Source of the DNA: Mobula hypostoma
Taxonomy: Eukaryota
NCBI RefSeq assembly: GCF_963921235.1
Contig: NC_086108.1
Span: forward strand, 63,986,001-64,050,000
DNA length: 64,000 bases
Direction of reading: 5' to 3'
The notes under the pieces are model-generated. The model was not told where the DNA came from and did no database searches. It saw only the letters and a program-made list of their open reading frames with translations. Positions 31,201 to 46,087 of the stretch are shown piece after piece (the first letter of the stretch is position 1; the number at the start of each line of letters is the position of its first letter). The position numbers were made by a program, and so were the translations under genes.

Positions 31201-31984
31201 TGGATACATTACATGTCTTCAGTTAAGTTATTAAACTTATCGTAAATACAGGCCACCCTGGGACACAACTACGTACCAGCAAGCTTTTATATCATTAAAT
31301 TTGAAATCCGGAGTACACATAAATGTTTGCTCCTACAAGTGGGAGAACTATTTCCCTCTTTTTCCTCATTTTTAGTAATTGTAGCCTTATGTTGTTACAC
31401 GATGCTATTCATTGCAATATCATTGATGCATGACTACCATATTGAGCATTTTTTGTGTACTTTCCAATAATGAACAAAATCGCCTTACAGACATCTGCAA
31501 AATTTGAACCTATTCATTATCTGGATTGTAGTTTGGATTCTCACTCATTCCAGGTTGCCATCTACAATGACCCCTTGATGTCTAGTTTTCTTTCTGTTAA
31601 TTAGCTAGCTCTCCGCCCATGCTAATACATTGCCCCCAGGTTGCCATGAGTCTTACTTGCAGTAGTGATATATAATGTGGCATTACATCTACTATTTCCT
31701 CTTTATCCGCTGTTTATTGGATCCTCAAAAATATCAGTACTTTCATCAAACACTAATTTTCCATTTCATACAGCCATGTCGACTCTGTTTAGTTATATTA
31801 TGATAATCCTGCTACTGCATACCTATTCTCAGGAAATTATCTTAGAGATCAGCAGGGCCAGATGTCTCAAGTGGGATTTTTAAAGAATATTTCTCCTCAG
31901 TGTTTACTGAAGAGAAAGTCATGATTGCTCAGTAGATAAGGGAAACAAGTGGAGATATTTTGGAGGACATTCATATTTTTAGGT

Positions 31985-33395
31985 TGGAGATACTTGCAGG
32001 GTTACAGCTCATTAAGATAGATAAATCCCCAGGGCCTGACTGAATGTATTCTCAGGCTTTATGGTAGGCTAGAGGGGAAATTGAGGAGGCCTCTGTAGGG
32101 ATATCGTTGGTCACTGGTGAAATTCCTAAAACTGGAAGGTGGCTAATGTTGTTGCATTGTTTAAGAAAAGTAGCAAGGACAAGCTGGGGAACTATAGTCT
32201 GGTCAACTGATGTCACTTGTGGGAAAGTAACTAGAAGTTCTTCTGAGGGACATGATCTACCATCATTTGGATAGACAGCATCTGATTGGTAGGAAACAGC
32301 ATGGTTTTGTTAATTCAAAATCATGTTTGAGAAACCTGCTAGAGTGTTTTTTGAAGAGATAACCAAAAAGGTAGACGAGTGAGGTCAGTGGAAGTTGTTG
32401 ATTTGGACTTTAGCAAGGCCCTTGACAAGGTCCCACATGGTAAACTGGTCTGGAAGGTTGGGTCCCATAGAATCCAAGTAGAATAGATTGGTGGATTCAA
32501 AATTGGCTTGGAGATAGGAAGCAGAGAGTTATGATTGAAGGTTTTTTTTTTAGAATGGAGGCTGATGAGTAGTGATGTGCCACAAGTTCAATGTTGGGAC
32601 TCTTGTTATTTGTTATTTATTCAAATAATCTGAGTGTGAATTCACAAGGCTTGATCGGTAAGTTTGTGTACGACATAAAATTAGGAGGTGGTGACGATAG
32701 TGAAGAAGGTAAGGTGGGAGCTTATATGGGAGGCAGGGTTTGAAGGTTGGCACAACATTGTGGGCCGAAGGGCCTGTACAATGCTGTACTATTCTATGTT
32801 CTATGTTCTATGTAATTGTAGATTACGGGGAGACCTTGATCGGTTAGGAAAGTGGGCCAAGGTGTAGCAAATATGTTTCAATACAGCTGATGCATTTTGG
32901 AAAGGCAAAACAGTGTAGGGCTTATATTATGGTTGATAAGGCACTAGGGAGTACAAGGGAACAAAGGGAGTTCATTAAAAGGTGCATCACAGGTGGTGAA
33001 AAAGGTATTTAGCATGCTGCACTTTATCAATCAGGGCATTGAGCATTGGAGATGAGACATTATGTTGCAGTTGTATGTCATTGCTGAGGAAGCATGGAGT
33101 ATTGATACAGTTTTGGTCACCCTTTTTGAGGGAAGATATGATTAAAATTGAAAGAATGCAGGGAAGATTTACTAGGACATCATTATGACTACAGGATCTG
33201 AGTTATAGGGAAGGGTGGCCAGGTGAGGTCTTTAATCCTTGGAATTCAGGAGAATGAAAAGCAACTTTATAGAAATGTTTAAAATTATGAAAGGGATAGA
33301 TAAGATGGATGATAGTCTATTTCCCCAGAGTAGGGAAGACCAAAATTGGGAAGCATAGATATAAGGTGAGAGAGGAAAAAAATTAAAAAGGACCA
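31985..33395 (+). mobile_element. Decayed CR1 RT region with a nested CR1 3' tail (~32711-32812); ends abruptly at the ERV LTR
   Basis: Motifs KSPGPD (~32023), QHGF (~32297) and DFSKALDKVPH (~32406). Nested (TTCTATG)n tail. Confidence 0.85.
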
Positions 33396-33397
33396 GG

Positions 33398-33584
33398 AAA
33401 GATCCAGCAACTATCAACAAACATTCTACAGATATTAACAGAGCTACAGGTTTTATTTTGTACAGATACTTCACAGACATTGCTGACTAACAGACCCTAC
33501 ATGCTACATGATTAGAAACAGCTCTGTTGTTATTTTGATCTTCCAGACATTCATCCAACATTTTACAAAATATAATATAACACA
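33398..33584 (-). repeat. ERV 3' LTR remnant (start of U3 only; the rest is deleted)
   Basis: ~185-bp direct repeat of 40378-40560 (about 80% identical by hand alignment), preceded on the minus strand by PPT-like AAGGGGTG at 33588-33595. Confidence 0.85.
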
Positions 33585-34125
33585 TTACACCCCTTGAATG
33601 TCTGGCAGGTTAAAGAGTCAAAGAACTCTTCCTCCTGCTTAAAATAAAGAATACATAATAATATCCCTTGGAGGATTAAAACTAATATTATCATGATCAT
33701 TGAAACCCGAGAAATTAAACAGATCTAAGAATTAACATTCATATTAGTTATGTAATGTATGTAGTTAGTATATGTACTCATCCTTAAGTGGGGGGGATGT
33801 CATTAACAATATCTTGTTGATAATTCAAACAGAATAAGATTTACAAACACTACATTGTGATCAGGGATGTAAAAGTCAAATTACAATCAATTTGGCACTT
33901 ATTTCACAGGAAAAAAAGTCATATGACACCAGTCACTTTCAGTTTACAACATTCCCTCACATTTATAGGTCCCCAATAGCAGATATCACATAATGTACGT
34001 TTTTTTTCCCAAAACAATAATGTAATTTTCACAAATCACAAGGTTATCAGTAGCTTGTAGGTCTCAACAGAAGTCTGACATCCAACAAAACAGAAGACAA
34101 ACATTAAAACAGAACAAAGCAACAT
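33563..34125 (-). pseudogene. Decayed small type I membrane protein gene in the env position of the ERV
   Basis: Acceptor tctctccacttttgtttttaaag| at 34138/34137. ATG at 34125 gives MLLCSVLMFVFCFVGC (signal-peptide-like). Frameshifted Cys-rich pieces follow. The C-terminal frame reads VSMIMIILVLILQGILLCILYF-KQEEEFFDSL... with a stop at 33563. Confidence 0.55.
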
Positions 34126-34176
34126 TCTGGCAGGAACCTTTAAAAACAAAAGTGGAGAGATAGTTAAAAAATGTTT

Positions 34177-35030
34177 TCATTTCCCCTTAATCAGTTTACC
34201 CTCATCCATACACACAGGATGGATCTATCCTCGTATCATCACCCAGTATGTACAGTATTTCCTTGTCCCTCGGCAATAATCTTGCCCTCCACTGGAGGGG
34301 AAGATGGCTATGTCACAAATACTTACCCGCCTTGTAAAACTGGCTTGGCTCTTTATCAGCACATTCAGTTATGCCATTGGGAACAAAAGGAATAGATTAT
34401 ACTTTCATCAACAAAAAGCGAGTGCCTCCTTTCAAGGGACGGTTATTCAAACTATACAAAGCACAGGGAAGGACAGGTAACCGACCAGATAAGGTATTTG
34501 CAAGAGTAAGTCAATGATTTCGATATTTTAATATGCCATTCATTCATTCAATCAGGCCACTGGGGACATGAAAGACCAACTATACACCATTAGACACTCC
34601 ACCCTTGTAGCATGGATCCTGACAAGTGCGAACCATTATCAGATTGAATTTGAAGGGGATCGCTGTACGCAGAAGCAAGATATTCTAATCCCGAAGGGTA
34701 CCATCCTGATTAGCTTTAACAGTAGGGATTGCCATCAGAAGTCCAGAATAAGTGCTCACCATAGTGAGGAGGTACTGGAATGGTTTCTGCAAAGGAAGGG
34801 GACTGTCAGAATCTATTTGTCAAATGTGAGCAGGGGCACGTCCACAGCATATGGCAGCCAAGTTTTGCTTCACGAGCTGGAGGTCCTTAATTTCTAAACA
34901 TAGGCCACAATTCCCTACTGCTTTACAAGCTATATTGGTGGGAAGAAATAATCCCCATTGCTTAGACCACTCCACGGTATCCTGTATCCCCAAATGACCA
35001 GAAGAACTCATGGACACTCCGAGCAAGTGG
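34177..35030 (-). pseudogene. pol: ERV integrase and Pol C-terminus
   Basis: HHCC remnant SGHLG...CGLC (ORF 34820-35026), QID...LLTMVSTYSG, IQSDNGSH, GLIE*MNGILK, and ERV-L-like tail EGKIIAEGQGN...KLIKGK*. Confidence 0.9.
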
Positions 35031-35191
35031 TAATAATGGTATCTGAAGCTCAGGGCTAGATGTCACTGAGTCAACACAAGCGAGTTTGTCCTCAATGTTG
35101 TTAATGTTGTCATCTGCGGATCAACTTTCAAATGAGCGTCGACATGGTAAACTGTACTGTGATGATTAGTTGCAAACATCCTTCCATAGCT

Positions 35192-36525
35192 TCACTCCCC
35201 ATAAGGGACGGCCCTTAACAGTAAAAGACTGCTCGTTCCACTGGGACAACCAGAAAACAGCCCAAGAATTGCTGTATGTACTATATGGGTTTCTTTGGCT
35301 TCATGCATAATGACAGTATGAACTGCTATAAGCTCCGTATATTGACTCAACCCATCAGAGCCTTCCTTCTTTAGAACTTGTTGGGTGAGAGGATTAAATG
35401 CAGCAGCCTTCGAACAATGACAGCCATTCTTCCATATCCCAGAGCCACCAGTGAACCAGGCCTGGGGCTGAGCAGGAGTCAGAAGATCAAAGGGACTGCC
35501 CCACACAGAAGGTGAGGCTTCGACTGGAGTAGCTTCGGGGTTGGGGTCTCAGCAACCAGTTCATGTATTTAATTAATTCCCTTTGATGCTGGTTCAGAAA
35601 TATACCAGTTCCATTTGACAAATGAACACTATTGTTCATGCCCTATCTTATGAGTGGGTGTGTCAGAGAGTGCCCATCCCAAAATGAGAAGGTCAGGGCA
35701 GAGAGAGATGAGAACATCACCCGTCTGTGTTTCAGTTTCCACCAAAGCCCAGTAGCAGGCAATGAGTTGTTTCTCAAACTCAGTGTATCTGGTGGCAGCA
35801 TTAGGAAGCTTTCGGGACCAGAAACCCAGTGGCAAGTTCTATACTCCATGCTTCTTTCTCAGGCTCCAGGCTGTCTCATCATCTCTAACACAAGCTTGCA
35901 GTTCAAAGGGGTTCCCTCTTGACGAGGAGAGAGGGGTAAGGCCATGGGAACGGTCTCCTTTACAGCCTCAAAAGCTAATTGTTGCTTAGGGCTAAATTCC
36001 TTTTAGTCACAGTGTACCTGCACAAGGGTCTGATGAGCATAGTCAAATGGGTTATGTGGCACCGCCAGTATCCCAAAAGGCAAACAAAGCATTGGGCTTT
36101 TTGTTTTGTCGTAGGGGGAGCGATGTCTAGGATCTTATTTCTGAATTTATCAGGAATCATCCTATCACCGTTAGTCCATTGTATTCCCAGAAAATGAACA
36201 GTTGTAGCTGGGCCCTGTACTTTATTGGGGTTAATTCCCCATCTCCTCGATCACATGTGATCAAAGTATTAAGGTCTTCAGAAGCCGCCTCTTCAGAGGA
36301 CCCCTACAATAGCACTTCATCTCTGTAGTGAGCTATGTTAATGGTAGAGCACAGGACATAATCATGCAAACTCTGTGCCACAACACTATAGTGAATAGTA
36401 TGACTATGGACATATTCTTGTGGAAATTGTGTAAAGGTGTACTGAAGGACATTCTATGTAAAAGCAAACTGATCTAGGGATCAGGAAAAGGGATGAAGAT
36501 GAAGGTATTAGCCAATCAATCACAT
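35192..36525 (-). pseudogene. pol: ERV RT core, tether and RNase H
   Basis: QFAFT..QYTFTQFPQEYVHS, HYRDE (decayed YxDD), INPNKVQGPA, and ORFs 35975-36160, 35629-35835 and 35192-35506. Confidence 0.9.
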
Positions 36526-36526
36526 A

Positions 36527-37280
36527 GGCTGTTTTCTAAAGGGGGAGAAAATTCAAAAATCCAAGGTGCAAAGGGACTTGGGAGTCCTCATACAGGATTC
36601 CCTAAAGGTTAATTTACAGGTTGAGTCAGTAGTGAGGAAGGCAAATGCAGTGTTAGCATTAATTTCGAGAGGACTAGAATATGAAAACAAGGATGCAATG
36701 CTGAGGCTTTATAAGGCACTGGTGAGGCCTCACTTGGAGTATTGTGAGCAGTTTTGAGCTCTGTTTTTAAGAAAGGATGTGCTAACATTGAAGAGGGTTC
36801 AGAGGAGGTTCACAAGAATGATGCCAGGAATAAAAAGCTTATTGTATGAGGAGTGATTGGGCCTTTATGCATCGAGGAGAAGAATGAGGGGGGTCTCATT
36901 GAAAATTATTGAATGTTGAAAGCCTTCGATAAAGTGGATGTGGAGAGGATGTTTCCTATGGTAGAGGAGTCGAGAACCTGAGAGCACAGCCTCAGAATAG
37001 AGTGATGTCCTTTAAGAACAAAGATGAGGAGGAATTTCTTTAGCCAGAGGGTGTTGAATCTGTGGAAATCATTTCCACAGGCAGCTGTGGAGGCCATGTT
37101 ATTGGGTGCATTTAAGGCGGAGGTTGATAGGTTCTTGATTTATCCGGGCGTGAAAGGTTATGGGAAGAAGGTAGAAGAATGGGGTTGAGAAGGAAATGGA
37201 TCAGGCATGATGAAATGGCGGAGCAGACTCGATGGGCTGAATGGCTTAATTCTTCTCCTATGTCTTATGGTCTTATGTTC
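36527..37280 (+). mobile_element. CR1 3' fragment inserted into ERV RT
   Basis: ORF 36566-36757 (QRDLGV...LVRPHLEYC) and tail tcttatggtcttatg. Confidence 0.92.
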
Positions 37281-37367
37281 TCAGTTCTACTAAACCCTCA
37301 ATCAGGGTCACAACATTTGAACAGCTGTGGCCTGCACAGAGGAAAACCAACTTAACTGACGATAATC

Positions 37368-38197
37368 GGATAGATAGATAGATAGATAGATAGATATACT
37401 TTATTAATCCCGAGGGAAATTTGGTTTCGTTACAACCGCACCAACGAAGAATAGAGCGTAAATATAGCAATACAAAAAAACCCAGCAATCAAACACCAAA
37501 ATGCAAACTATGCCAAATGGAAAATAAGTCCAGGACCAGTCTATTGGCTCAGGGTGTCTGACCCTCCACGGGAGGAGCTGCACGTTCGATGGCCACAGGC
37601 AGGAACGACGTCCCGTGCTGCCAAGTGTTGTATCACGGTGGAATGTGGCCGAAGTCCAACAGTAAAAAGTTCAATATCCAGTCTGCAAACACGTTCCTCG
37701 ATCATAATATACCCCGGATTGCACCATCCTTTGTTAGCCAGAACAGTAAGCACCCAACTCCTTTACGCTTACCGCTCTCAGTGCACTTCCGTTCAGCCGG
37801 AACGGTATTACCCACCAAACTCCTCTTCTCCAAAAGTCTCTGTTGTCTCAACCCGGTCCTCTTTCCTCAGCTTTGTGATCCCCCTCTGTGTGTTTTCCTC
37901 TGGATTTCAGCAGGGGTGTCCGCCGCTCTGTTCGCTAAGCCGGCCGGTATTTGCTGGTCCGCAGAATTCACAATGCGACCTTGCTTCTGTCCCGCGTGTT
38001 GGGATGTAACCATTTCCAGCGCTAAAGAAGACCCAAATAAAACTCTCTCTACCAGCATGTCAGAGAGGGTGCAGCTTCGACATTTTACCGTGAGAAAAAA
38101 ATACAAAAAATAACATAAATTAAAAAGTAAGAAGAAGAAAGTAAGAATAGATCGGAACGGCTGTACCAGGCTGCATGCACGACCGACGCATGCACAC
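37368..38197 (-). mobile_element. Internally deleted Rex1/Babar-derived non-autonomous element retaining both ends
   Basis: TSD TAATC at 37363-37367 and 38198-38202, (TATC)n tail, and an endonuclease fragment (ORF 37541-37753 LANKGWC...DIELFTVGLRP) next to a C-terminal SFLPVAI motif. Confidence 0.8.
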
Positions 38198-38289
38198 TAA
38201 TCAATGGTTATACACCAAGAACCATCAGGTTTCTGGGATGCCAGTAATAAGGGTTGCCATAGCAACAGCAGCGGTCCCAGAACCCTGGC

Positions 38290-39803
38290 CATACCTAGGT
38301 GACAGGCTGAGTTAACCTGCCATGCAGGGTCCAATTCACCCACATCTGGATATAACCAGGGAATGTCCTTCTTTTGAAATTAACTTTACATTCCAGGGTA
38401 GACCAGTCCCTCTATCTGGGCTATTAAATGCAATCCACCTGGGTCACAATGTTCATGATATAACACACAAAGAACATCAAGAGACACACCATCATTTTCT
38501 TCAGCAGGGATAGAACCATTTCCTTTCTACTAAGCGGGAAGAGGAGCTCCTTGATATCGACTGCTAAGGCACAGTCATGGCTGCTTTGAAGCATTCCTAG
38601 TTCCATTAATTAGGCACTAAGAATTCCCTATTGCTGCCAGAATTTAGAAGAGCCTTAGCCTGCACCTGTTCCCAATCTACATCTGACCCTTCAAGTTGGG
38701 CCAATAGATTGCTAGTTTCTGCCACAGTCTGACACTCAGCTGGCCCTCACAGAGCCAGCAAGATGATTCTTCACCATGAAGGTCCCCATTCTATCAATCA
38801 GGCGCACATACCAAGGGAAAGGGGTCAGCATCAGGGCTATTAAAGGCATTCTTATTATTATAAATGTCAGATTGCATTGCCATATCATGGAGGCATGAAA
38901 TAACCTCCAGCGGGGTTTTCCAAGGATGAGGAGATGCATCTGAATCCAAAGGGGCAGGGTAGAGAGCACAGACAGCTTGTATGACCATTGTCCACAGGAA
39001 CCGTTCAGCTCTGTTATCCAGACCCTAACTGAATCAATTCATGCACATTAAAAAACTGACGGGAAGCTACAGAAACCTATAGGCAGGTGTGCCAGCTGGG
39101 CAAGGATTCCCCTGGCCGCTGATGGAGCCTTTGGGCTAAATCCTGTAACTCAGCGATGGTGTAGTTGTGGATAGTGGTCTCAGTTGTGGTAGGGTCAGTC
39201 ACTGGAGCTTGATTTTGTTCATCAGCATTCTGGAGGTCCTCTTTAACTTTTACATGTCTGAGGGGGTGCACTTCCATCCTCAACTGAATCATCATCATAT
39301 CAGGTGTCTCCAACCCAAGTACCTGAGTCCCAGTTCTGCAGGACCATAGATCGTACCTTTACAGGATCCACCACCATGTGCCTGTGCTGCATGCAGCACT
39401 TTTACACCATCATAGCCACTCTACATGCCACAGAAACCTGTTTCGTTTCAGAACGTTCAGCACGTTCTTGCACTGCACATTGTTGTTTCACTTAAAGTAG
39501 TGTCAACAAAACTCGAAAAGGCCAACTTGCACTGCATTTGGTTGTCTTCCACTGAGAGTTCAGCTGTTTCAGTACTCAACTGCTACAATAAGTCATAAAA
39601 ATCTACCTTACTTGAGGCAGAAAATCCCTCCTGGAGGGAAAAACTATATGCTTAAGGCATTGTGATACTACACATGGAAATTTAACATCAGACAATTCAG
39701 TAAGTACCTTCTCCCAACATCTGGGAGGACCCCATTTACTCAGAACATTAGCCAGTGATTCAAAACCCTCAGAGTTATCCATGCTTTCAGGGAGGTGAAT
39801 CAT
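38290..39803 (-). pseudogene. gag: ERV gag (class III-like), decayed
   Basis: ORFs 39603-39803 (LANVLSKWGPP..W), 39077-39313 (YTIAELQDLAQRLHQRPGESLPSW) and 38794-38988 (PWKTPLEVISCLHDMAM...PDADPF). No CCHC knuckle seen. Confidence 0.75.
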
Positions 39804-39835
39804 TCAATTGCTTGTCCACCACCACCTATTCCTGG

Positions 39836-39853
39836 ACCCTGTTTGCAGCGCCA
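39836..39853 (-). promoter_or_regulatory. Primer-binding site, tRNA-Ser-like
   Basis: TGGCGCTGCAAACAGGGT begins 3 nt after the LTR-terminal CA. It matches 15/18 to the complement of the vertebrate tRNA-Ser(UGA) 3' end (TGGCGCAGCGAGCAGGGT, recalled from memory). Confidence 0.7.
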
Positions 39854-39856
39854 AGG

Positions 39857-40560
39857 TGCTGGATTAATCTATTGACTGTTCAAAAGATGTGGTTATAAGC
39901 ACAATAAAGTAACTTAAGCTTAATTTAGTATCATAAAATAGAAAGCATGAATAAACCATACAAAATACTACAGAGCAGGCAATAAAGTTTTCTGCAAGGC
40001 CTAAAGATTTCAGGGCTCACGATTGTTAGTAACCACTTGATTGTTGTTGTTGGGGGAACTCCGAATTCAGACTAGCTCGTGAAACCGCCTCAGGTCCTAA
40101 ACACTAGCTATTTCCAGTCCTTGGTTGGAGTCTAATGAAGCTGGGAAAGGAACCCCCATTAATACAAGTTTTAAAAGCACAAAGGCACACGGAGACAGAC
40201 AAACTCTTCGATCTTTTGTGTCAACACAGCCTATTTTTTTCAAATACATTCTGTGGCTTACAGAAGGGCATTAATGTTTACATATAAGCGATAAGCCCAA
40301 ATCCCAAAATAATCCATCAAGGGAACTATCAAACTGCTTGACAGATATTTGCATTTTAATGATGGCTGAGACTAAGAAAGAATCCAGCTACTATCAGCAA
40401 ACATTCTACAGACGTTAATAGACCTACAGTGTTTATCTCGCACAGACACAACACAAACATTACCCACTAACAGACACACATGCTACAAGAACAGAAAGAG
40501 CTAAATTGTCATTCTGACCTTCCAGACATTCCTCCATTTTACAAACTGTGATATAAAACA
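39857..40560 (-). repeat. ERV 5' LTR (~704 bp)
   Basis: The minus strand starts TGTTTTATAT and ends AATCCAGCA, adjacent to the PBS. The first ~185 nt are homologous to 33398-33584. Confidence 0.8.
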
Positions 40561-40852
40561 GATTCACCCTTTAGAGGACCAGAATTTACATTAGTTACTC
40601 ATATGTCTTTATGACTTTGTATACATATAGAGCTCTTACTATGTGTGTGTGTGTTTTTTAAATATTTCTTGCTACCTGACTCTCACAATCTGTGTTTTTA
40701 ATATTATTTTTATTATTGTTTTCCTACAGTTACAGCTACAAACTCAGTGCAAGGGAAAACCAAATGAATGTGAAAATGCATTGTGGTTGAGTTCATATCT
40801 ATGCAGATGGTCAATTAAGATGGCCAACCCTTCCACATGTAATGGCTGACAA

Positions 40853-41282
40853 TGTCACAGTGCCAACTGTTAATTCCCCAGTTTCTCCTAATTCCCTTTG
40901 ATGATGACACACCTGGTTTTCATCAAGACCTGCAGCATAAGAACCCCGGCTTTGCACCCACTAGTTGCCAGATTGTTGGTTTTGCCAGTGTGGTAATTAA
41001 CGCTTCCCAGCCGCTTGGGATTGTGTGTCCTAAGTTTTGCTTCAGTACCAAGACTTATCTGTGAAACTCAGTCTCTCCTGGTCAAGATCAGTTTTCTAAG
41101 TTTCCGAGGTTTACCTCTGAAACCCAGTCTCTCCGTGTCAAGACAAATTCTGCCTGTCTCCTGCCTTCCTGCCTTCCTGCTCTCCCTCCTGTTTGCCGTT
41201 CAATGCTCACACTCGCGTCTACATCCTAACTAAATCTCTGTGCCTGTGTCCTGCACTTGGGTTCACCTCATTCGTTGTAACA
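40853..41282 (+). repeat. Gypsy 5' LTR
   Basis: tgtcacag...ttgtaaca; about 90% identical to 45656-46087 by hand count. Confidence 0.95.
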
Positions 41283-41299
41283 GAATCGACCTGGCCACC

Positions 41300-42340
41300 A
41301 TGGACCCAGCGGTCATGAATACCCTTCAGCAAGCCCTCGCCAGCCAGAGTTCCCTACTGGGACAACACGACCAACTCCTCCGGGAGGTCATGGAGAGCCT
41401 TCATTCCCTGTCTGCTCACATCACGCAGATCGGTGACCAGGTGGACCACGTATCCACTCAGTTTACTCAATCCATTCCTGGAACTCTGTCTAACCAGCCC
41501 AGATAGCCCGTAGTGGCAACCCCCTACATGTCAGCAACACCCCCGCCAAGAGAGCCTCACGTACCTGAACCGGAGCACTCACTACACTGGAGTTTTGGGG
41601 AAGTGCCGGACCTTCCTCCTTCAGTGCTCCCTAGAGTTCAAACAGCAGTCGTCCACGTACTCCACGGATAAGTCAAAGATTGCTCATATCATGGGGTTGT
41701 TGCGGGGAAGTGCATTAGCGTGGGCCACAGCTGTTTGGGATAACCAACCGGATATCAGCTCTTCTTTCGCCACCTTTATCGCAGAAATGAGAAAAATCTT
41801 TGATCACCCTGTCCGTGGTAAAGACACCACCAAGTGTCTACTCACTCTTGGTCAGGGCTCACGCAGTGCTGTCGAATATTCTGTGGAGTTCCGGATGTTA
41901 GCAGCCGACTCGGGGTGGAACGATGAGGCGCTCCAAGAGGTATTTCAGAATGGTCTCGGCGACATGGTGAAAGACGAGTTGGCGGCAAGAGATGACACCG
42001 ACAGCCTGGATTCCTTGATCTCCCTAGCCACCAGGCTGGACAATCGTCTCCAAGAACGCCATAGAGAACTGGTTGTCCACCACCTTTGGCCACTCCACGG
42101 CACTCATTACCACCTCCCGCCAGAACAAGCCTCTCTCCTCCTGCTGCTTCTAGAGTAGCTCCCAGCCTGGCCATTTCCACCGCCCTGGGAGAGGAACCCA
42201 TGCAGCTGGGATAGAACTGCCTTTCCCCCACAGAATGACTCCGGAGATTGAGAGCGGGTGAGTGTCTATACTGCAACCAGTCCGGCCACTTCCGTGCTAC
42301 CTGTCCCCTTCGGCCAAAAATCGGAAGACTCACCAGTAGA
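41300..42340 (+). pseudogene. gag: Gypsy gag
   Basis: MDPA start, ORF 41595-42158 (FLLQC...ALAWATAVW...GWNDEAL) and zinc knuckle CLYCNQSGHFRATC. Confidence 0.92.
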
Positions 42341-45300
42341 AAGGGGAACCCTGGTGAGTCAGACAACATTCCCTTCCGTTCCCCGAGCCCGGATGCAGCT
42401 TCCAGCTACTTTACATTACAATCAACAATCCCTGCCTCTGTTAGCACTAGTAGACTCCGGCGCTCAGGGAAACCTTTTGGATGAAGACTTAGCTTTCCAG
42501 GCCGGAGTTCCTCGTGAGCCATTGAGTGCCCCCCTGGGAGCCCGGGCACTGAACGGTAGACTACTGGCCCGAGTCACACACTACACACCACCCTTGTCTC
42601 TCCTTCTCTCCAGGAACCATCAGGAACAGGTATGATTCAATTTAATTTCCTCTCCTCAAGCTCCTATAATTCTTGGGTACCCCTGGTTAAGCCATCATAA
42701 CCCCCACATTGACTGGTCCATTGGGAGGATAGTCAGCTGGAGTTCGTTCTGTCAATCCACTTGTCTACCGTCAGCCCTTTCCCCAGTGGAAGTCACCATA
42801 ACCTTGTCTGCCTCCAAACCCCCCCCCCCCGACTTATCTAAGGTTCCAGTAGAGTATCACGATCTGGGAGAAGTGTTTAGCAAGCAACGGGCTCTTTCCT
42901 TGCCTCCACATCGCCCTTACAATTGCGCAATTGACCTTCTCCTCAGAGCCCCTCTACCCACCAGCCGGCTGTATAACCTGTCCTGACCAGAAAGAGAAGC
43001 AATGGAGGCTTACCTAAATGACTATCTCGTGGCTGGCATTATCCGACCCTCATCTTCCCCTGTAGGCGCAGGTTTCTTCTTTGTGGGGAAAAAAAATGGC
43101 TCACTGCACCCCTGCATTGACTATCGTGGCCTGAACAGCATCACCATAAAGAATAAGTATCCATTGTCCCTTATCAACTCTGCTTTCAAGCCCCTTCACG
43201 GAGCCACAATTTCCTCTAAGTTGGACCTGAGGAGTGCCTACCACCTGGTCAGGATAAGGGAGGGAGATGAATGGAAAACAGCTTTTAACACCACCTGCCC
43301 GATCATTTCGAATACCTGGTCATGCCATTCGGTCTCACCAATGCCCCCGCCATCTTCCAAGCCCTGGTAAATGATGTCCTTAGGGACTTTATTAACCGTT
43401 TCATTTTCGTTTATTTGGACGACATTCTAATCTTCTCCCATCATTTTCAGGAGCACACCCAATACGTCTGTCAGGTCCTTCAGAGGTTTTTGGAGAACAA
43501 GATATTCGTTAAGGCAGAGAAGTGCGAGTTCCATGCCCGTTCTGTCAGTTTCCTGGGGTACATCTTTGAGAGCAGGCAAGTTAGTGCGGATTCCGAAAAG
43601 ATCCAGGCAGCGGCGGAGTGGCCAAATCCCACGAAGCTCAAACAACTCCAGCGATTTTTGGGGTTCGCAAATTCTACCGTCACTTCATCGGGGATTACAG
43701 CTGGGAGGCAATGCCCCCTACTCAACTCACCTCTCCTGCGACCCCTTTTCACTGGACCCCCGAAGCGGACTCAGCCTTCTCAGAGCTGAAGAAGTGTTTC
43801 ACCTCCGCTCCCATCCTGGCTCAACCTGACCCTTCTCGCCAATTCATTGTGGAGGTTGACGCCTCCAACTCTGGGGTGGGAGCAGTCCTCTCTTAATGCT
43901 CTGTCCCAGACCAAAAGCTCCATCCCTGCGCCTTCTTCTCTCGTCATCTATCCCCCACCAAATGGAACTACGATGTTGGGAACCGGGAGTTACTGGCCAT
44001 CAAACTCACTTTGGAGGAGTGGAGGCACTGGCTGGAGGGAGCTGAATATCCATTTATCATCTGGACGGACCACAAGAATCTCACATACATCCAAACCGCC
44101 AAACGCCTAAATTCCCGCCAAGCCCGTTGGGCATTATTTTTTGGCCGTTTCAGATTCACACTCACCTATCGTCCTAGCTCCAAGAACGGGAAGCCCGATG
44201 CACTGCCTCGTCAATACGTCTCCAAGACCATCCTTCCACCATCCTGTGTGGTGGCTGCCCCCATCTGGGAGATCGAATCCATAATCAAAGAGGCCCAACG
44301 GACTCAACCTGACCCAGGCAATGGAACGTCCAATCGCCTCTTCATACCTGACTCTGTTTGGTGTCAGGTTCTCCAGTGGGGGCATACTTCTCGTTTCGTC
44401 TGCCATCCCAGAATTGATCAAACTCTGTCCCTTCTGAAGAGACATTTCTGATGGCCCTCCATGGATGCTGACACTCACTCTTTTATCTCTACCTGTTCGG
44501 TATATGCCCATGGAAAACCCTCCCATCGACCACCTGCTGGGTTGCCTTGTCCCCTACCTGTCCCTAGCCACCCTTGGTCTCACATTGCTCTGGATTTTGT
44601 TACTGGACTACCCCCTTCACATAGGAACACTGCTGTACTCACTGTGGTGGACCACTTCTCCAAAGCGGTGCACTTCGTAGCCCTTCTCAAACTCCCTACA
44701 GCCCGTGAAACAGCCAACCTCCTTGACTATCATGTCTTCCGCCTTCATGGAATTCCCCCTGACATCATTTCTGACCGGGGCCCCCAATTCATCTCTCAAG
44801 TCTGGAGATCCTTTTGTCAAGCCCTTGGAGCCTCAGTAACCCTATTTTCTGGCTTCCATCCGCACACTAACGGTCAAACGGAATGAGCAAACCAGGATTT
44901 GGAAGAAGCACTGCGCTGCATAACCACCAACAACCAGTCATCCTGGAGCACCTATCTCACTTGGGCGGAGTACACCCACAACTCCCTGGTCAGCACTGCC
45001 ACTGGAATGTCTCCCTTCGAGTTATCAACCCCCTCTGTTTCCTGCCCATGAAGATGACATTGTTGTGCCTTCAGTTCAGGCCCATCTCCGCCGGTGCCGC
45101 AAGGTCTGGAAGGATGCACGCGCAGCCCTGCTCTGCTCAGCTGACTGCAACCGGAGGATTGCCAATCGCCATCAAATTCCTGCACCCAGTTATCGACCTG
45201 GGCAGAAGGTTTGGCTCTCTTCTAAAGACATCCCCCTCAAGAATGAATCCAAGAAGCTCGCCCCTCGCTACCTCGGACCATTCAAAATTGACAGCATTAT

Positions 45301-45640
45301 CAACCCCTCGGTGGTCAGACTCAAGCTGCCTAGATTTATGCACATTCATCCCACATTCCACGTCTCCCAATTAAAACCTGTGTCTGTCAGCCCTTTGTGC
45401 CCTCCTGCTGAACCTCCTCCACCCACCCGGATCATTGACAACTGCCCAGCCTACACTGTCTGGTGAATACTGGATGTGTGCCGCTGAGGCAGGGGTCTCT
45501 AGTACCTGGTCGATTGAGAGGGATACGGCACTGAGGAGTGCACCTGGATTCCCCGCTCCTTCATCCTGGACCCTTCCCTCATCCGTGATTTCCACTGAGT
45601 CAATTCGGACAAGCCTGGTCATTGGCCTGGAGGCTCCCGT
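42340..45640 (+). pseudogene. pol: Gypsy pol (PR, RT, RNase H, IN, chromodomain)
   Basis: [37 protein letters not shown]...SDRGPQF...[14 protein letters not shown] and chromodomain YLVD*EGYG.EE..W. Several stops and frameshifts. Confidence 0.95.
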
Positions 45641-45655
45641 TGGGGGGGAGGGTAT

Positions 45656-46087
45656 TGTCATAGTCCCGACTGTTAATTCCCCATTTTCTCCTAATTCCCT
45701 ATGATGACGGCACACCTGGTTTGCATCAAGACCTGCAGCATAAGAACCCCAGCTTTGTACCCACTAGTTGCCAGACTATTGGCTTTGCCAGTGTGGTAAT
45801 TAACATTTCCCAGCTGCTTAGGATTGTGCGTCCTAAGTTTTGCTTCAGTACCAAGATTTATCTGTGAAACTCAGTCCCTCCTTGTCAAGATCAGTCTTCT
45901 AAGTTCTACTCCAGTTCCGACGTTTACCTCTGAAAGCCAGTCTCTCCATGTCAAGATAAATTCTGCCTGTCTCCTGCCTTCCTGCTCTCCCTCTTGTTTT
46001 TCGTTCAATGCTCATGCCTGCATCTGCATCCTAACTAAATCTCCGTGCCTGTGTCCTGCACTTGGGTTCACCTTGTTCGTTACAACA
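45656..46087 (+). repeat. Gypsy 3' LTR
   Basis: Follows the PPT; tgtcatag...ttacaaca, then TSD GACAA. Confidence 0.95.

Follow-up and report, generated by a model that had tools for sequence, protein, structure and literature searches.

In this study, we analysed a provirus on the minus strand of a 64,000-nucleotide stretch of Mobula hypostoma DNA (RefSeq assembly GCF_963921235.1, contig NC_086108.1, positions 63,986,001 to 64,050,000; hereafter the window, in which all positions are counted). The element, at 33393-40566, is a genuine but incomplete provirus and almost certainly a remnant of a class III or ERV3 endogenous retrovirus (ERV), related to ERV-L and belonging to clade Huo. It probably belongs to the group that holds elements of other rays. 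The explanation that we favour, with some reserve, is that a class III provirus, now dead, became part of the germ line in a ray ancestor and came from a shark-and-ray sub-lineage in which the dUTPase had already been lost. The element is not an ERV-L in the strict mammalian sense, as no dUTPase follows its integrase (IN) core. The provirus itself is new and its kind is already known; it points to an under-described sub-lineage of sharks and rays.

The proviral nature of the element is evident from its layout. Two direct repeats, at 33393-33595 and 40372-40572, agree at 160 of the 199 columns of their alignment (80%; E~1e-40 in a comparison confined to the window); these long terminal repeats (LTRs) flank gag, reverse transcriptase (RT), connection, RNase H, IN core and Pol tail, which follow each other on the minus strand in retroviral order. 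An original prediction, made from the letters alone, had described a complete proviral layout hidden by nested insertions. Gag, RT, connection (its tether), RNase H, IN and tail were all recovered, but there is no protease, the 3' LTR is cut and env is a remnant at most. The insertions, designated A and B, both lie inside RT, side by side with ~85 bp of RT between them, and are not nested in each other. The ~80% identity that it gave for the LTR remnants was reproduced, and the great age drawn from it is supported.

Gag and pol were mapped by frameshift-aware alignment to the closest protein fetched, P0148 of the stingray Hemitrygon akajei, and scores were compared with those of shuffles. Gag aligned at 39794-38853 with scores of 168 and 84 (at most 40 for shuffles) and with 39% identity at 39794-39094 and 27% at 39166-38853; its C-terminal part gave a weak signal, to which a comparison by eye was added. 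The pol alignment covered 747 codons at 36515-34194 with 47% identity to P0148 and included a weak match to Pfam RT_RNaseH. Pfam on the six whole frames found nothing beyond weak RNase H-like matches. Neither a Gag zinc finger nor a GPY/F motif was seen in the window translations, where the end of gag is decayed, and no such Pfam families were present in P0148 or P0150; the absence of both is the class III/ERV3 criterion in Table 1 of PMC4299795.

The search for relatives yielded 383 proteins in all; it combined three rounds of homolog search with one HMMER search and two look-ups of clusters. The first round, run with a window frame, returned a single protein from a distant class III group, and the HMMER search seeded with that protein gave mostly the same group together with long unrelated retroelement proteins. 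Among 54 labelled references, Pol scored best against Hemitrygon P0148 (1313; 48% over 680 codons), followed by the dUTPase carriers of fish and amphibians (1163-1057) and the mouse ERV-L cluster (1002), while short-linker birds (<=616), class I (<=182) and Gypsy (<=115) scored lower. For RT plus connection, the top four of 346 proteins were all from Hemitrygon. Foamy chains were the best PDB matches, albeit weak (E 3e-4), and a scan of viral contigs detected no relatives.

Maximum-likelihood trees were built with 38 and then 28 references, picked by length and spread; the outgroup rows are taken to be Gypsy and class I on the basis of their Pfam domain sets. Killifish or mouse proteins, rather than the stingray protein, guided the choice of frames for the window row. 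In the LG+G4 tree (39 rows, 784 columns), the window grouped with three ray rows (support 90/68) inside a 25-row ERV-L-like clade (92/97). The ray group received 95/91 in the LG+C20 tree (29 rows, 787 columns), where it fell with mouse ERV-L and six further rows in an 11-row group (88/99) and the fish and amphibian carriers (99/98) lay outside. The class III side was separated from class I and Gypsy with 100/100 in both trees. The mole and galliform rows, which we presume may stand for HERV-S, clustered by themselves (100/100), apart from the window. Both trees thus place the element among ERV-L-like elements, in agreement with the original prediction; this position near ERV-L is the best estimate, and approximately unbiased (AU) tests allow a deeper one.

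The absence of a dUTPase, also noted in the original prediction, was confirmed. A profile built from nine carriers, which gave strong matches in 3 of 20 test proteins and a weak one in another, matched none of the three minus-strand frames between IN core and LTR, and Pfam detected no dUTPase there. The spacer between the end of the IN core and the tail strand was measured in 19 proteins. It is 155 nt or ~52 codons in the window (~49 between the motifs quoted earlier, rather than the ~30 first counted), 51 residues in both of the full-tail stingray models and 48-49 in five other short forms, against 149-164 in three long-linker forms and 174-184 in nine dUTPase carriers. The label "degenerate dUTPase" was dropped in favour of "long linker" for the three intermediate proteins, which gave a weak profile match (Xenopus, E 0.03) or none. 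Along its full length, the window linker can be aligned to that of the stingray (29 of 35 residues matched, 45%), and Pfam found no dUTPase in the stingray models. Since these models share the short dUTPase-less linker, the absence is a family trait and not a product of decay in this copy.

The position of the dUTPase in its carriers bears on how it could have been lost. The tail motif was the only strong match of a tail profile across the six window frames (independent E-value 4e-5). A structural model of the stingray tail (predicted local distance difference test, 94) is a five-strand barrel that superposes on the C-terminal domain of Rous sarcoma virus integrase (Z 7.3, root-mean-square deviation 1.8, 49 aligned), and features of the ESM language model assigned that tail to IN_DBD_C at 0.92. 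A sequence-profile search of the tail against the PDB returned chance matches only, and Foldseek returned none at E 0.001. We predict from the model that the Pol tail is the integrase C-terminal domain. If so, the ERV-L dUTPase would lie inside the integrase, as a module of ~125 residues that separates the core from the C-terminal domain and whose excision would keep the integrase intact; a clean loss would then be mechanistically easy, which favours loss. The carriers include killifish and seahorse proteins, which places the dUTPase in ray-finned fish too, whereas its gain has been dated only to before the tetrapod radiation and its origin called unclear (PMC4299795). According to the same source, some ERV3 groups have a dUTPase and others do not, and losses may have occurred; ERV-S has no identifiable dUTPase (PMC8278194), and a single gain in ERV-L has been suggested (PMC1224870).

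Considering these results, the absence of the dUTPase is somewhat more probably due to loss than to its never having been gained. As carriers fall both beside and outside the ray group in the LG+C20 tree, one loss is simpler than two gains. The competing view, to which we give appreciably less credit, is that sharks and rays carry an early branch that diverged before the integrase linker acquired the dUTPase and that kept the ancestral short linker. It agrees with a linker of 51-52, close to the 48-49 of the distant short forms, as an ancestral state predicts, but a precise loss would yield an equal length. Both trees have a backbone of short, open branches, and AU tests did not reject trees with the rays outside all dUTPase or long-linker carriers (p 0.138 and 0.477) or with the window outside the ERV-L-like clade (p 0.33). 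On the other hand, both trees put the ray group among or level with the carriers, and in the LG+C20 tree mouse ERV-L and two further carriers share its group, which leaves out the fish and amphibian carriers. A stronger version, that the shark and ray elements are the earliest branch of the ERV-L group, predating dUTPase capture and persisting in these hosts for 100 million years or more, from the present copy to the much less decayed stingray copies, seems more doubtful still; if true, the genome plan of the ancestral ERV-L would be established and the capture of the dUTPase bracketed.

Like the three AU results, several other points weigh against loss within a ray group close to ERV-L. The base of class III is open in the LG+C20 tree, where the 25-row clade of the LG+G4 tree is not resolved, and the trees hold no rows for foamy viruses, SnRV, HERV-L, HERV-S or the whale-shark element Rh_ty_ERV3. 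No ERV-L-like row has a longer end branch than the window row (0.94-1.09), whose letter make-up is also odd. The short linker was seen in one ray family only, as the models from Narcine and a second Hemitrygon group end before it. The barrel of the tail is a common fold, and Tudor and PWWP domains outscore integrase in the comparison (Z up to 10.2). The "undescribed deep branch" of the original prediction is nevertheless weakened: the element groups with ray proteins already in RefSeq, and both clade Huo and dUTPase-less lineages are known, although the AU values (p 0.07-0.48) leave room for a deeper position.

Three further explanations were weighed. The element may be a ray copy of the published whale-shark Rh_ty_ERV3 lineage, a tentative proposal that is compatible with loss in a shark-and-ray sub-lineage. 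By eye, window gag at 38812-38690 is identical to Rh_ty_ERV3 in 21 of 41 residues, against 10 of 41 for P0148, and at 39166-39092 in 13 of 25 against 11 of 25; the 41-residue stretch found no match above shuffle in the stingray, which also counts against a closest relationship to the ray group. S2 Fig of PMC6001957 (Xu et al., 2018) lists Rh_ty_ERV3 beside HERV-L. This comparison is confined to gag, in the first 400 residues of Rh_ty_ERV3, and white-shark P0142 falls in a killifish group that bears dUTPase, so sharks hold more than one lineage. That the virus had a dUTPase which this copy deleted after insertion, as with the protease, is improbable. Other large deletions did occur in the copy (protease, most of the env region, 3' LTR), but its linker matches the stingray linker over its whole extent and to within one codon in length. 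An assignment to the Gypsy retrotransposons or to the epsilon-like (class I) retroviruses, the grouping that the original prediction had set as its own test, is the least probable. An AU test placing the window with the outgroups was not rejected (p 0.069), which also works against our placement, but that constraint also permits a sister position to all class III; the Pol scores for class I and Gypsy, far below that of the ray, the full support for the class III side, and the ERV-L-type gag and tail all disfavour it.

Table 1. Features of the provirus and of its insertions, listed from the 5' to the 3' LTR (positions in the window).
Feature	Position	Strand	Basis or remark
5' LTR portion matching the 3' copy, begins TG	40372..40566	-	80% identity to 33393-33589
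Probable remainder of 5' LTR	39854..40371	-	Lies between matched repeat and PBS-like site; ATTAAA at 40360
Primer-binding site (PBS)-like sequence, begins TGG	39836..39853	-	Position directly before gag
gag, broken, ERV-L/Fv1-like, approximate ends	38330..39840	-	Alignment to stingray P0148, above shuffles
First surviving RT piece, directly after gag	38198..38289	-	9/12 identical at 38235-38202
Insertion A, 830 bp, non-LTR-type, 4-bp tandem tail	37368..38197	-	5-bp duplication
Short RT piece between insertions A and B	37282..37367	-	25 codons, 44% to P0148
Insertion B, 3' fragment of a long interspersed nuclear element (LINE), ~760 bp	36520..37281	+	72-79% to three other window places
pol main block, broken: RT, connection (tether), RNase H, IN zinc-binding and core	34435..36515	-	P0148 alignment
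Short IN linker, position of ERV-L dUTPase, none here	34332..34434	-	Profile, Pfam, spacer length
Pol tail, predicted integrase C-terminal SH3-like domain	34186..34331	-	Tail profile; model of stingray homologue
Possible env remnant with internal deletion, weak	33600..34140	-	Hydrophobic stretches near 34137 and 33697
Short purine run, polypurine-tract position	33590..33595	-	Directly before 3' LTR
3' LTR, truncated at LINE fragment	33393..33589	-	Repeat match to 5' copy

The LTRs and the decay of pol tell a consistent story of age. The Kimura two-parameter distance of the LTR pair is 0.229 (bootstrap 0.162-0.309), and the pol block carries 13 stops and 13 frameshifts, with altered catalytic motifs in RT and RNase H. 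At ~0.115 substitutions per site for each LTR and a nonsense rate of 4%, ~11 new stops are expected in 747 codons; the observed number fits the divergence of the LTRs and so favours a single old integration. An uncalibrated mammalian rate gives an LTR age of ~52 million years. The shark rate of 2.2e-10 assumed in PMC4422223 would give ~520 million years, a date that was dropped as it predates jawed vertebrates. The 3' LTR breaks off after ~195 bp at the junction with a LINE fragment, so the target-site duplication is unreadable. Because gag starts near 39840, just past a PBS-like site at 39853, the 5' LTR may be ~700 bp long, of which the 3' copy retains the first ~195 bp; the inferred remainder has no match elsewhere in the window and no counterpart at the 3' end. 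The PBS-like site, in our estimation, resembles the tRNA-Ser type. A similar purine run precedes both LTR copies (40567-40572 and 33590-33595, minus strand), either by chance or because the upstream copy is the former 3' LTR of a tandem neighbour, which, if true, would weaken the LTR dating.

Word sharing with other sequence data was also recorded. In four runs of one study, under a second species label, 0.50-0.56 (~55%) of the sampled 31-mers of 33600-36400 were found; if the whole stretch is present there, these unaligned words probably reflect the same locus at ~98% identity. Two further species labels held 0.05-0.10 of the sampled 31-mers, a sharing of words without alignment that is no evidence of orthology.

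Considering the above results, we propose a plausible history. The virus would have replicated as ERV3-type elements do, by tRNA-primed reverse transcription, with Gag plus Gag-Pol, integrase-made insertion and perhaps an envelope, as general ERV3 biology and PMC8278194 suggest. Its parent sub-lineage likely lost the linker-embedded dUTPase before the insertion, and entry into the germ line of a ray ancestor likely took place tens of millions of years ago or more. Neutral decay without viral activity would have followed. The later events that the sequence shows are loss of the protease region, the insertion of two retroposons within RT and the truncation of the 3' LTR.

The remaining parts of the element bear the marks of this decay. 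Across the whole element, none of six reference proteases outscored its shuffles, and the interval from gag to RT lacks a D[TS]G; as the stingray relative has a protease, the gap is read as a deletion in a decayed copy. The start of RT is gone as well, and the first RT piece directly abuts gag. Insertion A is bounded by a 5-bp duplication (37363-37367 and 38198-38202) and has a tandem array at 37369-37396; Pfam gave nothing above cut-off, and no match was found elsewhere in the window. Its CpG ratio of 0.87, against 0.30 in pol, together with the clean duplication suggests that it is recent. Insertion B is presumably CR1-like, judging from its motifs. In the 600 bp after pol, a stretch resembling a signal peptide (~34137) and one resembling a membrane anchor (~33697) mark a possible env remnant; the hydropathy of 2.95 was matched by 1% of 300 shuffles, while a homology comparison with 344 proteins (best 50 against a median of 32) and Pfam detected no env. 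Rfam and tRNA scans of the window gave no matches.

Beyond the provirus, the long ORFs of the window are transposon-derived, with no host gene among them. A Gypsy-type LTR retrotransposon (40853-45990, plus strand) lies ~290 bp upstream of the 5' LTR and is younger than the provirus, as its LTRs are 91% identical. The LINE fragment at 31840-33393 (plus strand) is cut at the 3' LTR junction, and one deletion probably removed both its end and that of the LTR.

Among known elements, the closest likeness is to the Hemitrygon akajei Gag-Pol family (XP_072898008.1, XP_072893362.1), which shares the ERV-L-type gag, the order RT-connection-RNase H-IN, the short dUTPase-less linker and the tail, and gives the best Pol match (47-48%). 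Its models, which are automatic predictions, are long and include a protease, in contrast to the heavy decay of the window copy; with gag only ~30-39% identical, it is a different family. The RefSeq cluster of this stingray (P0128/P0148-P0159) comprises 13 gene models of one ERV-L-like family, four of them long Gag-Pol proteins (1,520-1,579 residues), one of 1,206 residues and the remainder gag-only, of which five are named "Friend virus susceptibility protein 1-like", which suggests either a young family or the retention of gag genes. In Narcine bancroftii, the same parts of RT and RNase H are missing from P0137, P0165 and P0168 of a cluster of 14, which reflects either an amplified non-autonomous derivative or a shared gene-model artefact. 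White-shark (Carcharodon) P0142 groups tightly with the dUTPase-bearing killifish and seahorse elements P0008 and P0136, apart from the rays. There are thus at least two ERV-L-like lineages in elasmobranchs, and shark-teleost host switching perhaps lies behind that grouping. P0001-P0007, among them Peromyscus models (P0003 cluster), stand as a class III group of their own on a long branch; their Pol is unbroken and their IN linker short.

The mouse cluster P0009, which we take to be MuERV-L from its Mus members, shares with the window 41% Pol identity, the same tail, a short leader after the PBS and an apparent lack of a GPY/F-type tail, but carries a dUTPase in its linker (179-residue spacer). 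MuERV-L and HERV-L have a Leu-type PBS and no env. XtERV-S and anuran ERV-L-like elements (PMC8278194; bioRxiv 2024.07.05.601823) are non-mammalian class III gag-pol elements with Ser-type PBS and env, and unlike the window have a long linker with a dUTPase or a degenerate one. Bird and crocodilian dUTPase-less ERV3 and ERV-S (PMC4299795; PMC8278194) resemble the window in that lack, yet duck and raptor P0014 and P0015, with a short linker of 48 residues, score 616 and stand apart from it in both trees. According to PMC4977317, fish ERVs are mostly epsilon, foamy or SnRV-like, as the original prediction had said, but clade Huo, which includes class III ERVs, occurs in all major vertebrate lineages (PMC6001957). 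In S2 Fig of the latter, whale-shark Rh_ty_ERV3, whose gag resembles that of the window by eye, and killifish No_fu_ERV1 come just before HERVL, MuERV-L and HERV-S in tip order only, and the part cited lists no ray element; killifish P0008, on the No_fu_ERV1 side, has a dUTPase, unlike the window. Thirteen cartilaginous-fish genomes have been screened (PMC10435555; PMC12287698), and the portions available of PMC8672886, PMC4531489 and bioRxiv 2024.07.05.601823 hold nothing on rays. Our literature search, with the supplements of the 13-genome survey, Repbase, Dfam and subscription journals outside it, found no ray ERV-L-like element or dUTPase-less elasmobranch lineage.

The copy described here is inert, and its value is that of a pointer: rays carry dUTPase-less ERV-L-like families, in contrast to the carriers in bony fish, amphibians and mammals. 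Shark and ray genomes therefore make it testable whether the ERV-L dUTPase was gained once and repeatedly lost, or was gained after this lineage had split off.

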